DNA of 64,000 bases from TPA_inf: Saccharomyces (Eukaryota). The position numbers and the translations under genes are program-made. Positions within the stretch are counted from its first letter, which is position 1, and every line of letters begins with the position of its first letter. This document shows, piece by piece, positions 51,961-55,120 of this stretch. The notes under the pieces are model-generated. The model was not told where the DNA came from. It ran no database searches and worked only from the letters and a program-made list of their open reading frames with translations. The stretch is taken from the NCBI GenBank assembly GCA_000146045.2, contig BK006949.2, forward strand, positions 736,001 to 800,000, read 5' to 3'.

Positions 51961-53325
51961 ATGCTGAAATACAGGTCTTTGCCAATCAAGAGAGCAATCC
52001 ATCATCCGGCACCAGGAATTACTCCAATTTCTCCCCGTATTATGGTAAGCAGGTTGAGAGTAATACCATCTTTTAATTTGAAGTTCAATCGTTGGAACTC
52101 TTCGGTGCCAGAAAGCTCGAAAAAGGAGTTAAAAACGACAGACGGAAACCAAGAAAGTGCGAGTAAGGTCTCTCCAGTAAAAGAGAAGGAAAAAGTACCC
52201 TTTAAGGTTAAGATGCAAAAAGCCCTTCGTCATTATTGGGATGGTTCCAAACTTTTGGGGTTGGAGATAAAAATTTCTTCCAAATTGCTCATGAAGAGTG
52301 CTGCAGGCTACCCATTGACGAGAAGAGAAAATTTACAACTGAAAAGAACTACTCAAGATATCGTTCGGTTGGTTCCATTTGCTGCTTTCCTCATTATACC
52401 CTTTGCTGAACTTCTTCTTCCATTTGCATTAAAGTTATTCCCCAATTTACTTCCTTCTACTTATGAATCAAGTAAAAAACGCGAGAATAAACTAGAAAAT
52501 TTAAGAAACACAAGGAAGTTAATGTCTGAAATCATAAAGAATAACAAGTCCCATTTTAAACCTAATAATATTTCCGAGGAACAAAAAGCTTTGTTTAACA
52601 GGTTCTACACACATGTCCGTGCTACAGGAGTGCCGGAGTCTCGTCAACAGCTAATCGAAGTAGCTAGATTATTCACTGATGATACTGTATTGGATAATGT
52701 GACAAGACCTTACTTGATTGCATTAGCGAAGTATATGAATTTGCAACCATTCGGCACTGATGTGATGCTACGTTACCGTATCAGATACAAAATGCTTGAA
52801 TTGAAAAAAGATGATCTATCTATATATTACGAGGATGCAGAACAACTCTCCCTCTCTGAATTGAAAACAGCATGCGCCTCCAGAGGTATTAGAAGTGTAG
52901 ACGTAGAGCCTAGCGTGTTATATTCGAATCTAAGATTGTGGCTGAACATGAGGCTCAAGGATAAGATCCCATCCACGCTGTTAATCATGGCTACTGCCTA
53001 TAACTACGGTAATGTGCAATCAAAGGAGTCATTGTACGACGCATTATGTGACGTTTTAATCGGTATCCCTGATGAACTATACCATGAGGTTAAAGTAAAC
53101 GTCGTTAAGGAAGATGAGGCATCCGCTAAGCAAAAATTGAAACAATTGAGGGAGCAAGAAGAAATTATGAAGGAAGAAGAGCAGCAAGAAGAGAACGCCA
53201 TTGTGAGCGTCAAGGATGAGTTGAGCTTGGACGACCAAGACAAGAACATAGATGCGGCTGCTCCAGACGTAAAACCGCATGACACCAAGCCTATCGGAGA
53301 AGCCGCTGCCATCAAAGAGAAGTAA
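51961..53325 (+). CDS. YLH47: LETM1-family mitochondrial inner-membrane protein (MDM38 paralogue).
   Basis: 454-aa ORF, the same length as YPR125W. LETM1-like ribosome-binding domain with a single transmembrane segment (LVPFAAFLIIPFAELLLPFALKLFP). Confidence 0.85.
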   Translation: MLKYRSLPIKRAIHHPAPGITPISPRIMVSRLRVIPSFNLKFNRWNSSVPESSKKELKTTDGNQESASKVSPVKEKEKVPFKVKMQKALRHYWDGSKLLGLEIKISSKLLMKSAAGYPLTRRENLQLKRTTQDIVRLVPFAAFLIIPFAELLLPFALKLFPNLLPSTYESSKKRENKLENLRNTRKLMSEIIKNNKSHFKPNNISEEQKALFNRFYTHVRATGVPESRQQLIEVARLFTDDTVLDNVTRPYLIALAKYMNLQPFGTDVMLRYRIRYKMLELKKDDLSIYYEDAEQLSLSELKTACASRGIRSVDVEPSVLYSNLRLWLNMRLKDKIPSTLLIMATAYNYGNVQSKESLYDALCDVLIGIPDELYHEVKVNVVKEDEASAKQKLKQLREQEEIMKEEEQQEENAIVSVKDELSLDDQDKNIDAAAPDVKPHDTKPIGEAAAIKEK

Positions 53326-53756
53326 CCCAGTTTTCACCTGGCCCATTAAACCGCACGATACACTCTCCGCTACTCTCGCCAACATTCTTTTTATACATAC
53401 TTGCACGAAACTGCTTTTTTAGCAATGAAAAGAAAATGTAGTGAACTCTACTATAGATTTTGTACATAAGATAAATAAAATACACTACTATATGAAATTT
53501 TTGTTTGTAAAGCTGGTGTTTGCACACATAGATAGTATCAACGTAGGGGATCAACACATGCACGACTACTAGAAGCCTTACCCGTAACTTCTTGCATATC
53601 TGCTTTGCCAATATTTTTTTTTAAAGTTATTTCTTAAACTACTCCTCGTGCTGTCCACATTTTTACCCGTTAGTTGTTAGACAAAAAAAAAGCGCAACTA
53701 TCTCCCTTTTGCGCATCTCCCAAGTCCTTTACCAAATATATTAGAAGAATGACACC

Positions 53757-53789
53757 CGGCCGAGACGGATGAAGCGGCCGTCTCGGCCG
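53757..53789. promoter_or_regulatory. Perfect 12-bp inverted repeat, CGGCCGAGACGG-N9-CCGTCTCGGCCG. It is GC-rich in an AT-rich intergenic region, about 300 bp upstream of YPR127W.
   Basis: Direct reading: cggccgagacgg atgaagcgg ccgtctcggccg. The CGG...CCG palindromic architecture is typical of Zn2Cys6 binuclear-cluster factor sites. Confidence 0.45.
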
Positions 53790-54082
53790 CCTTAGGAAGG
53801 GATCTGCGTTTTTGTTCGTTAATGAGGTAATCAAGGGCGTACTTGGTAGAACGGTACTAAGTTAATCATTGCTGCTCTCCCTCAAAATTACTCAAAGAAT
53901 AGAGTGTCTATTGAACCGTAGAATAGGCATTTATTATATAAGGGGTTGTCAATTTACCAAATTTTTTACTTCATCTCAGGACTCTCTCTTAAAATTATTT
54001 TCCTTGCCATTTTCTATGTTATGTAGAATAGAAAAACAGGTACATATTAACTAAAATATACACCAAAAAAAGTAAAAATAAA

Positions 54083-55120
54083 ATGTCTGTCGCCGATTTG
54101 AAAAACAACATCCACAAGTTAGATACTGGCTATGGTTTAATGAGTTTGACTTGGAGAGCCGAGCCTATCCCTCAGTCGCAGGCTTTCGAGGCCATGCACA
54201 GAGTGGTTGAGTTATCCAGAGAACGTGGGCACAAGGCCTTTTTCAACGTTGGTGAATTCTATGGTCCCGATTTTATTAATTTGTCGTATGTTCACGACTT
54301 CTTTGCGAAATACCCAGATTTGAGAAAGGATGTGGTTATCAGTTGTAAAGGTGGTGCAGACAATGCTACCTTAACCCCCAGAGGCAGTCACGATGATGTT
54401 GTACAAAGCGTAAAGAATTCAGTTAGTGCTATTGGTGGCTACATCGACATCTTCGAAGTCGCAAGAATCGACACTTCCCTATGCACGAAAGGAGAGGTCT
54501 ACCCCTACGAATCGTTCGAAGCGCTTGCTGAGATGATCTCCGAAGGCGTTATTGGCGGTATTTCATTAAGTGAAGTTAATGAAGAGCAAATTAGAGCTAT
54601 TCACAAGGATTGGGGAAAGTTTTTGACCTGCGTTGAAGTGGAACTTTCTTTGTTCAGTAATGACATTTTACACAACGGAATTGCTAAAACATGTGCTGAA
54701 TTGGGGTTGTCCATCATCTGCTACTCCCCACTGGGCAGAGGATTGTTGACAGGTCAATTGAAGTCAAACGCTGATATCCCTGAGGGTGACTTTAGAAAGT
54801 CGTTAAAGAGATTTAGCGACGAGTCTTTGAAAAAAAACCTGACCTTGGTCAGGTTTCTACAGGAAGAAATAGTCGACAAGCGCCCACAAAACAACTCCAT
54901 TACTCTTGCACAACTGGCTTTGGGATGGGTTAAGCACTGGAACAAAGTTCCGGAATACAGTGGCGCCAAATTTATCCCAATTCCAAGTGGCTCTTCTATT
55001 TCCAAGGTTAATGAAAACTTTGATGAACAGAAAACCAAACTTACCGATCAAGAGTTCAATGCCATTAACAAATATTTGACTACTTTCCATACTGTTGGTG
55101 ACAGATACGAAATGGCGTAA
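54083..55120 (+). CDS. Aldo-keto reductase (pyridoxine 4-dehydrogenase-like) YPR127W.
   Basis: 345-aa ORF, the same length as YPR127W. AKR-fold sequence features. Confidence 0.8.
   Translation: MSVADLKNNIHKLDTGYGLMSLTWRAEPIPQSQAFEAMHRVVELSRERGHKAFFNVGEFYGPDFINLSYVHDFFAKYPDLRKDVVISCKGGADNATLTPRGSHDDVVQSVKNSVSAIGGYIDIFEVARIDTSLCTKGEVYPYESFEALAEMISEGVIGGISLSEVNEEQIRAIHKDWGKFLTCVEVELSLFSNDILHNGIAKTCAELGLSIICYSPLGRGLLTGQLKSNADIPEGDFRKSLKRFSDESLKKNLTLVRFLQEEIVDKRPQNNSITLAQLALGWVKHWNKVPEYSGAKFIPIPSGSSISKVNENFDEQKTKLTDQEFNAINKYLTTFHTVGDRYEMA

Follow-up and report, generated by a model that had tools for sequence, protein, structure and literature searches.

A genus-wide CGG half-site array, palindromic in S288C, as a candidate zinc-cluster activating sequence of YPR127W

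A palindrome in the YPR127W promoter

The window analyzed here, a stretch of 64,000 nucleotides from Saccharomyces contig BK006949.2 (positions 736,001 to 800,000), carries a 33-bp palindrome, CGGCCGAGACGG-atgaagcgg-CCGTCTCGGCCG, at window positions 53757-53789, in the promoter of YPR127W, which encodes an aldo-keto reductase (AKR). From sequence comparisons, we interpret this palindrome as the S288C-type form of a zinc-cluster-type upstream activating sequence (UAS) of YPR127W that is conserved across the genus Saccharomyces and was shaped by template switching, and we assign this interpretation a probability of about 0.65. The element is built of facing arrays, CGG-N6-CGG-N6-CGG and CCG-N6-CCG, with a 9-bp period and two to six half-sites per side depending on the species. 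As such, it would provide a platform for several molecules of at least one Zn2Cys6 zinc-cluster transcription factor. Among the candidate factors, Rds1 is the best match by motif, and Yrm1 and the Yrr1 family are implicated via published expression data. Together with the adjacent GAAGGGAT and Msn2-type input, the element would probably help to induce this NADPH-dependent reductase when cells face drugs or oxidative stress. The perfect symmetry of the palindrome would be a by-product of mutation rather than a selected feature. Short-range template switching between the arms may repeatedly homogenise the arms, invert the spacer and add or remove 18-bp double units, and would thus account for the perfect 12-bp arms of S288C, the perfect 24-bp arms of S. 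mikatae and the two-way 9-bp centre found among S. cerevisiae strains.

The two 12-bp arms are 100% complementary, and no longer perfect inverted repeat with a loop of up to 30 nt occurs anywhere in the window. The palindrome spans -326 to -294 relative to the YPR127W ATG, and the first-pass annotation, which had described a perfect inverted repeat with GC-rich arms about 300 bp upstream of this gene, was exact in sequence and coordinates. The host intergenic region is 757 bp long and separates two open reading frames (ORFs) on the forward strand, the LETM1 domain gene YPR125W and YPR127W (Table 1). The product of the second ORF is 100% identical to S. cerevisiae YPR127W protein entries, and the gene has been placed at chrXVI 790083-791120 (PMC7801573), which puts the window at chrXVI 736001-800000. 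The gap from the end of the palindrome to the TATA box TATATAA is 146 bp, a typical distance for a yeast UAS. In S. cerevisiae, CGG half-sites start at 53757, 53766, 53775 and 53784 and CCG half-sites at 53778 and 53787, all in a 9-bp register. Inverted CGG/CCG pairs in this element are of N0, N9, N18 and N27 spacing only.

Conservation across Saccharomyces

Orthologous loci were obtained via the YPR127W protein, and six species were compared: S. cerevisiae, S. paradoxus (L006 and L007), S. mikatae (L001 and L002), S. kudriavzevii (L003, L004, L010 and L011; element present in three assemblies), S. eubayanus (L005) and S. uvarum (L008 and L009). Protein searches with YPR127W and ANT1 homologs gave no entry for S. 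arboricola or S. jurei. The gene order CTR1, LETM1, AKR, ANT1 is common to all orthologous loci. A GC-rich element was identified at the orthologous position in each of the five other species, and in every species it lies directly upstream of an invariant GAAGGGAT. The layout is the same throughout, with CGG-N6 units facing CCG-N6 units in the 9-bp register seen in S. cerevisiae. The number of half-sites varies, with CGG+CCG counts of 3+2 in S. cerevisiae, 3+3 in S. mikatae, S. paradoxus and S. uvarum, 3+6 in S. kudriavzevii and 4+3 in S. eubayanus.

The S. mikatae element is a perfect palindrome whose arms extend to 24 bp, GCGGCCGAGACGGATGAAGCGGCC-attca-GGCCGCTTCATCCGTCTCGGCCGC. The S. paradoxus element is like that of S. 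mikatae in layout, with degenerate arms (CGGCCACGACGGACTTGGCGGCC-tgaat-GGCCGCTTCATCCGCCTCGGCCG) that are mismatched at 6 of 23 positions, in clustered multi-nucleotide blocks. In S. kudriavzevii, an 18-bp double unit is tandemly duplicated on the promoter-proximal side. In S. eubayanus and S. uvarum, three to four CGG on the left meet three CCG on the right, with the junction at CGGCCG. The promoter-proximal arm, GGCCGCTTCATCCGTCTCGGCCG, is nearly invariant across species. The 23-bp unit that forms the distal arm in S288C occurs, reversed, as this promoter-proximal arm in the other species and in a second S. cerevisiae allele (allele B, described below). What is conserved is a 21-23-bp block, CGGCCGAGRCGGAYGARGCGG(CC), within convergent CGG half-site arrays of 9-bp period. 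The perfect 12-bp palindrome, which had earlier been taken as the unit of interest, is a shortened form of the version that has 24-bp arms in S. mikatae.

In the six-species alignment, invariant columns make up 26% of the intergenic region. The octamer CTCGGCCG in the right arm is invariant and ties for the second-longest invariant run of the intergenic alignment; the other long runs are ATAGATTTTGTA (53453-53464), GAAGGGAT and the TATA box. GACGG (53764-53768), in the left arm, is also identical across the six species. When triplets and spacers are considered separately, all nine triplet columns of the left arm are invariant, versus only two of its 12 spacer columns (Fisher p = 2e-4). In the right arm, invariance extends to nine of nine triplet columns and nine of 12 spacer columns, the spacers there being CTTCAT and TCTCGG. 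Constrained CGG triplets with drifting spacers are the pattern expected of half-sites for Zn2Cys6 proteins of the Gal4 family. Thus, the fixed triplets and the divergent left-arm spacers fit Zn2Cys6 half-site recognition and not a selected hairpin. The first-pass annotation had named a lack of conservation in related Saccharomyces species as grounds for rejection; its core idea survives this check, as the element is conserved in five further species.

Could the palindrome act via secondary structure, as a cruciform or a transcript hairpin that affects transcription, replication or chromatin, with its sequence mattering less? Folded as single-stranded DNA, the elements of S288C and S. mikatae reach -17.4 kcal/mol (z = -5.35) and -37.2 kcal/mol (z = -12), respectively, and the spacer inversion and arm homogenisation described below imply hairpin-like intermediates during replication. 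The elements of S. paradoxus (z = -2.0), S. kudriavzevii (z = -2.6) and S. eubayanus (z = -0.26), however, fold little or no better than shuffled sequence. Thus, complementarity is not conserved; what is conserved is the phased triplets of each arm separately, and there are no compensatory changes. The element also lies upstream of the TATA box, and the intergenic region gave no meaningful match in scans for Rfam families and tRNAs. Arms of 12 bp with a 9-nt loop are, moreover, short for stable cruciform extrusion. We consider a structural role highly improbable. The earlier suggestion of a cruciform or hairpin survives in that the S288C element folds and its hairpin-prone geometry explains how it mutates; it fails as a statement about what has been selected.

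Departure from chance

The palindrome had been called unlikely by chance, and whether this is so depends on how it is scored. Perfect inverted repeats with arms of at least 12 bp and loops of at most 30 nt arose in 33 of 200 dinucleotide-preserving shuffles of the 64-kb window, so arm length alone is unremarkable. The inverted repeats of shuffled windows are AT-rich; here, G or C occupies 10 of the 12 arm bases in surroundings of 37% GC. For this reason, a composition-weighted palindrome score, in which each paired base is weighted by its frequency, is a fairer test. The palindrome scores 8.32, versus 6.16 ± 0.52 in shuffles (maximum 8.18), and none of the 200 shuffles reaches its value. Two further perfect short palindromes are AT-richer and within the shuffle range: AAACCTGACC-tt-GGTCAGGTTT at 54835-54856, inside the YPR127W coding sequence, and AATGTATCTTT-tc-AAAGATACATT at 1944-1967, with 11-bp arms.

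The half-sites were assessed in the same way. CGGCCG occurs six times in the window (1.8 expected), and three of these copies are inside the palindrome; three copies within 33 bp were seen in none of 300 shuffles. CGG-N6-CGG-N6-CGG arrays occur in the window only within the palindrome and arise in 1.3% of shuffles, and the palindrome is the densest CGG/CCG cluster of the window. A functionless, GC-rich palindrome produced by chance draws on the 16% of shuffled windows that contain repeats with arms this long, and is opposed by the composition-weighted score, the CGGCCG density and the syntenic conservation, with invariant blocks, in six species. Because the element is conserved, this explanation is effectively refuted.

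Candidate zinc-cluster factors

We scanned the element in the six species with the 124 factor specificities of MacIsaac 2006 (PMC1435934, supplement 2) and with additional consensus sites for Yrr1, the pleiotropic drug response element (PDRE), Stb5, Hap1, Gal4, Put3, Ppr1, Leu3, Ume6, the carbon source-responsive element (CSRE) and Yap1. Among the 124 specificities, only RDS1 (CGGCCG) and IME1 (CSGCsGAG, which reads CGGCCGAG in the S. cerevisiae element) combine matches in all six species with rarity in the window, where RDS1 matches six times and IME1 four, half of each inside the element. None of the additional consensus sites, Ume6 included, gave a specific match of this kind. The Rgt1 motif CGGANNA also matches the element and was rejected as low in information (66 matches in the window).

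Rds1 is stated to bind CGGCCG (PMC3534124, with a reference list that includes Badis and MacIsaac), and the Harbison motif for Rds1, from the H2O2 condition, is kCGGCCGa (PMC2174516). The element contains three such cores, and the flanking k and a are satisfied by the proximal copy, where TCGGCCGC reads gCGGCCGa on the opposite strand. The promoter-proximal TCGGCCG(C/A) is invariant in the six species and fits the Rds1 motif including its flanks. The invariant CTCGGCCG fits both the RDS1 motif (tCGGCCGm) and the IME1 motif from chromatin immunoprecipitation (ChIP; CTCsGCSG), and both motifs were derived from H2O2 ChIP on microarrays (ChIP-chip; PMC2174516).

Other zinc-cluster consensus sequences are missing. 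The Yrr1/Yrm1 consensus WCCGYKKWW (PMC8837787) has no match on either strand of the S. cerevisiae promoter, Stb5 (CGGtstTata) has none in the element or the S. cerevisiae promoter, and the everted repeat of the Pdr1/Pdr3 PDRE (TCCGYGGR, TCCGCGGA) was found in no Saccharomyces promoter. Since the promoter also lacks a Hap1 consensus, the CGG cluster is its only candidate zinc-cluster site. The S. cerevisiae element contains no Gal4 (CGG-N11-CCG), Put3 (CGG-N10-CCG), Ppr1 (CGG-N6-CCG) or Leu3 (CCG-N4-CGG) site, and neither the element nor the S. cerevisiae promoter contains a CSRE or Yap1 site. Of the factors that the first-pass annotation had named (Gal4, Put3, Ppr1, Leu3, Pdr1/3, Yrr1 and Stb5), none has a consensus site in the S. 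cerevisiae element. Its broader proposal of a Zn2Cys6 site gains from the in-register conservation of CGG triplets, with the factor match limited to the Rds1 motif, which is the best literature match from the scan.

A link between YPR127W and Rds1 was not found in the main texts of the literature searched, and YPR127W is unlisted in the supplements of PMC1435934 and PMC3798279. The arm sequences were not found in a yeast context in the literature searched.

Spacer inversion and template switching

Metagenomes were scanned with the pattern CTCGGCCG-N2-8-GAAGGGAT. Nearly all of the approximately 120 loci recovered are chance matches in GC-rich bacterial contigs. One contig, L062, is S. cerevisiae and is 99.3% identical to the window along 5.57 kb. 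In its element, CGGCCGAGACGG-CCGCTTCAT-CCGTCTCGGCCG, the window's arms enclose a spacer that is the exact reverse complement, and the 33-mer aligns by BLAST to the minus strand of the window at 100%. We refer to the window form (ATGAAGCGG) as allele A and to the inverted form (CCGCTTCAT) as allele B. Allele A was identified in the window, L012-L016, L140, L141 and L145, the last of these from the most divergent lineage sampled. Allele B was identified in four independent assemblies, namely L062, L142 (NCBI chromosome CP006228.2) and the Logan contigs L143 and L144. Both alleles occur among contigs that encode an identical protein allele. Between L140 (A) and L143 (B) there is no substitution in 2831 aligned columns, and between L140 (A) and L144 (B) there is one in 2613.

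An artefact of k-mer assembly was considered and rejected by reasoning: a 31-mer with the spacer, one arm and one or more flanking bases can come from only one orientation. Allele B was also recovered from data of different types, namely a finished NCBI chromosome, a metagenome contig and Logan contigs that reach across both flanks. Contig L143 (Logan SRR30235495) ends inside the palindrome, perhaps because both orientations were present in a heterozygous or mixed sample and split the de Bruijn graph at this point.

Single nucleotide polymorphisms lie on both sides of the element at 53596 and 54006, no more than about 220 bp away, and each occurs in all four combinations with spacer orientation, so that the four-gamete test fails on both sides (13 sequences). 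In this sample of 13, the pattern points to a recent inversion of the spacer, one that may have recurred.

Two differences between species are of this kind. The loop reads ATTCA in S. mikatae and, reverse-complemented, TGAAT in S. paradoxus. In S. cerevisiae and S. mikatae, the left arm perfectly copies the conserved right arm, whereas S. paradoxus, the sister species, shows differences clustered in multi-nucleotide blocks (GA to AC, TGAA to CTTG). Removal of 18 bp from one or the other side of an S. mikatae-like palindrome yields either S. cerevisiae allele. When a polymerase switches template between short inverted repeats in yeast, the documented outcomes are homogenised arms and inverted spacers (PMC8604942). 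Template switching is frequent at S. cerevisiae promoters, with 107 loci reported and spacer inversions at CAP1/LAC1 and ERT1 (PMC13100816, Rozenfeld et al. 2026). The two-way 9-bp spacer on near-identical haplotypes, the 24-bp arms of S. mikatae and the 18-bp duplication of S. kudriavzevii, all newly found here, would be signatures of this process.

A more far-reaching possibility is that the locus is an invertible cis-regulatory switch that operates without a recombinase. Template switching between the 12-bp arms would flip an asymmetric core (3 CGG + 2 CCG versus 2 CGG + 3 CCG) often enough for both orientations to keep segregating on the same haplotypes, and basal or induced expression of YPR127W would depend on orientation. 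We regard this as very unlikely. If true, it would provide heritable, reversible variation in a detoxification and vitamin-B6 enzyme across yeast populations, and a eukaryotic analogue of bacterial phase-variable promoters.

The haplotype pattern also bears on recombination. The meiotic hotspot motif '4156' of fission yeast, WNTCGGCCGA, has CGGCCG at its core (PMC3534124), and the cluster could be mainly a 4156-like hotspot, with mixed haplotypes that result from local gene conversion. The 4156 motif creates hotspots when present in a budding-yeast promoter, is enriched at natural double-strand-break hotspots and acts independently of rds1 (PMC3534124), and the four-gamete test fails within about 200 bp on either side of the element. 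Each S. cerevisiae copy, however, is one mismatch away from WNTCGGCCGA. A hotspot would leave unexplained the phased CGG triplets conserved over 21-50 bp in six species, and motifs of this kind tend to erode rather than persist. Although distinctly unlikely as the main explanation, a hotspot role is compatible with UAS function, and the element might act as a double-strand-break hotspot that contributes to the mixed flanking haplotypes.

Published regulation and the weight of evidence

YPR127W is among the listed targets of Yrr1/Pdr8-type multidrug regulators in PMC12239629, which cites Lucau-Danila 2003. The gene is induced by H2O2 in an Msn2-dependent manner, with Msn2 ChIP (PMC2718523). In an expression-based network, RDS1, STB5 and YAP1 are predicted regulators of an alcohol-dehydrogenase-type module to which YPR127W might belong (PMC3798279). 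The published regulation fits a combination of zinc-cluster and stress input at YPR127W.

Several observations weigh against a zinc-cluster UAS shaped by template switching, or against Rds1 as its reader. MacIsaac et al. found that Rds1 sites are generally unconserved in S. bayanus (theta = 0.058), where the Rds1 protein is only 32% identical (PMC1435934). The site described here does not behave in this way, as it is conserved in S. uvarum and S. eubayanus, so either Rds1 is weakened as the factor or the site is an exception. At the YPR127W intergenic region, ChIP signal arises even when no epitope tag is present (PMC1297652). Thus, the RDS1 and IME1 motifs from H2O2 ChIP may partly reflect hyper-ChIPable, highly induced promoters. 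Conservation of the right-arm spacers exceeds what a simple half-site model predicts, and an extra or different factor may read that arm. The four-gamete pattern could also come from recombination or gene conversion rather than repeated flipping. Finally, the syntenic promoters of Kazachstania africana, Naumovozyma dairenensis and Nakaseomyces glabratus lack the element, which is thus specific to the genus Saccharomyces.

The promoters of these more distant orthologs contain sequences of their own. The N. dairenensis promoter has a perfect PDRE, TCCGCGGA (L018 ~1712-1722), and an inverted CGGAAAT...TTTCCG pair and CCGCGGAAAT were identified in N. glabratus (L019 ~1497-1520 and 1313-1325) and K. 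africana (L017 ~1480-1545). Such zinc-cluster-type sites suggest the same kind of regulon with rewired sites. In K. africana, the region upstream of the YPR127W ortholog is enlarged and includes a tRNA-like sequence, GCTCGTATGGCGCAGTGGTAGCGCAGCAGATTGCAAATCTG..., apparently tRNA-Cys GCA (L017 ~1301-1372), and the LETM1 neighbour is missing beside the ortholog on this contig.

The main reader of the element could also be a protein outside the zinc-cluster family, such as a Skn7-, Msn2- or Gis1-type stress factor or an uncharacterised GC-box binder, in which case the CGG periodicity would be incidental. Right-arm spacers conserved almost to the level of the triplets, the invariant GAAGGGAT 6 bp away, the Msn2 dependence of YPR127W induction and the shakiness of ChIP-derived motif assignments at a hyper-ChIPable locus all speak for such a protein. 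The left arm, however, keeps all of its CGG triplets in register and leaves its spacers free to diverge, which is the signature of CGG half-sites. SKN7, MSN2/4, RPH1 and YAP consensus sites have no match inside the element, and CGGCCG has been reported for Rds1 by the sources cited in the hotspot paper (PMC3534124). We therefore judge a reader of another family to be unlikely.

Features of the element and its surroundings

Coordinates of the element and of the features around it are collected in Table 1.

Table 1. Features of the palindromic element and the flanking YPR127W locus, in window coordinates.
Feature	Position	Strand	Remarks
YPR125W, LETM1 domain ORF	51961-53325	+	
Left arm CGGCCGAGACGG	53757-53768		CGG half-sites at 53757 and 53766; CGGCCG at 53757-53762
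Spacer ATGAAGCGG, 9 bp	53769-53777		Bears third in-phase CGG at 53775; CCGCTTCAT in allele B
Right arm CCGTCTCGGCCG	53778-53789		Includes CTCGGCCG at 53782-53789
23-bp unit CGGCCGAGACGGATGAAGCGGCC	53757-53779	+	CGG-N6-CGG-N6-CGG; conserved; distal arm in S288C
Central CGGCCG	53775-53780		Junction of CGG array with CCG array
Outer CGGCCG hexamers	53757-53762 and 53784-53789		
GAAGGGAT	53796-53803	+	Invariant in six species; 6 bp downstream of palindrome
TATA box TATATAA	53935-53941	+	Conserved
YPR127W coding sequence	54083-55120	+	Aldo-keto reductase, pyridoxine 4-dehydrogenase; presumed regulated gene

The invariant GAAGGGAT resembles a post-diauxic shift element (PDS, TWAGGGAT) or a stress response element (STRE). 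It is probably a partner site of the palindrome and may supply a conserved input of the Msn2/Gis1 type. The canonical AGGGG sites at -538 and -142 in S. cerevisiae are not conserved in all species, and the distal AGGGG (STRE) at -538 is borne by about 16 bp that are extra in S. cerevisiae relative to S. paradoxus (GTATCAACGTAGGGGA, 53533-53550). The longest invariant intergenic run in the six species, ATAGATTTTGTA, lies about 130 bp past the YPR125W stop codon and is probably a 3'-end formation signal of that gene. Also present, about 60 bp upstream of the palindrome, is a poly(dA) tract followed by GCGCAAC (53683-53698). It is positionally conserved in Saccharomyces and may be a nucleosome-excluding site or a site for a general regulatory factor.

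Comparison with known systems

The direct regulators of YPR127W, which encodes a reductase induced by stress and drugs, are poorly defined, and hardly any targets of the zinc-cluster factor Rds1 have been validated. A conserved 33-bp site that is probably the only zinc-cluster-type site of this promoter could serve to assign a factor to YPR127W, and could throw light on the reading of CGG arrays that have more than two half-sites. The locus would also be a compact natural example of template-switch mutation on a putative transcription factor platform, in which inversion within a species, homogenisation between species and gain or loss of 18 bp are found together. It could be used to measure flip rates and to examine the effect of half-site orientation and copy number on expression.

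The element is like the UAS of Gal4-family Zn2Cys6 proteins in the fixed register of its CGG/CCG triplets, which are kept while the spacers of one arm drift, in its inverted symmetry, and in its place some 150 bp before the TATA box of an oxidoreductase gene that responds to stress and drugs. The well-characterised factors differ in spacing, with N11 for Gal4, N10 for Put3 and N6 for Ppr1 (inverted), N4 everted for Leu3 and N0 everted for Pdr1/3. The YPR127W element, in contrast, has N6 direct repeats in each arm, arms that meet at N0 or N9, and five to nine half-sites rather than two.

Among individual factors, Rds1 (YCR106W; CGGCCG or kCGGCCGa) compares well, given three exact cores in S. 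cerevisiae, the conserved proximal TCGGCCG(C/A), and a motif from H2O2 ChIP-chip for a gene that is H2O2-induced. Unlike what is expected of Rds1 sites in S. bayanus (PMC1435934), however, the element is conserved in that lineage and well past the hexamer. The Hap1 site CGGnnnTAnCGG is also a direct CGG repeat with the N6 spacing found in each arm, but the element lacks the TA dinucleotide (it has AG and AA instead) and the consensus is unmatched; no link between YPR127W and Hap1 was found in the literature searched. The CSRE of Cat8 and Sip4, YCGGAYRRAWGG, is approached by CGGATGAA, which fits its first 8 informative positions, but the second half-site is 1 bp further away (CGGATGAAGCGG versus CGGATGAATGG), so that the consensus fails. 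We know of no dependence of YPR127W on Cat8 or Sip4.

The second point of comparison is the set of inverted repeats shaped by template switching (PMC13100816; Sci Rep 2021, PMC8604942). These are also short repeats that overlap transcription factor sites within about 400 bp of a coding sequence, and the YPR127W element shares with them homogenised or expanded arms and an exact spacer inversion between strains that may have happened more than once. It differs in that the reference strain already has perfect arms and strains vary purely by a flip of the 9-bp spacer. It is also conserved genus-wide, and varies in addition by duplication or deletion of an 18-bp unit. The element is thus best explained as a joining of two known kinds, the UAS elements built of CGG repeats and the promoter inverted repeats shaped by template switching.

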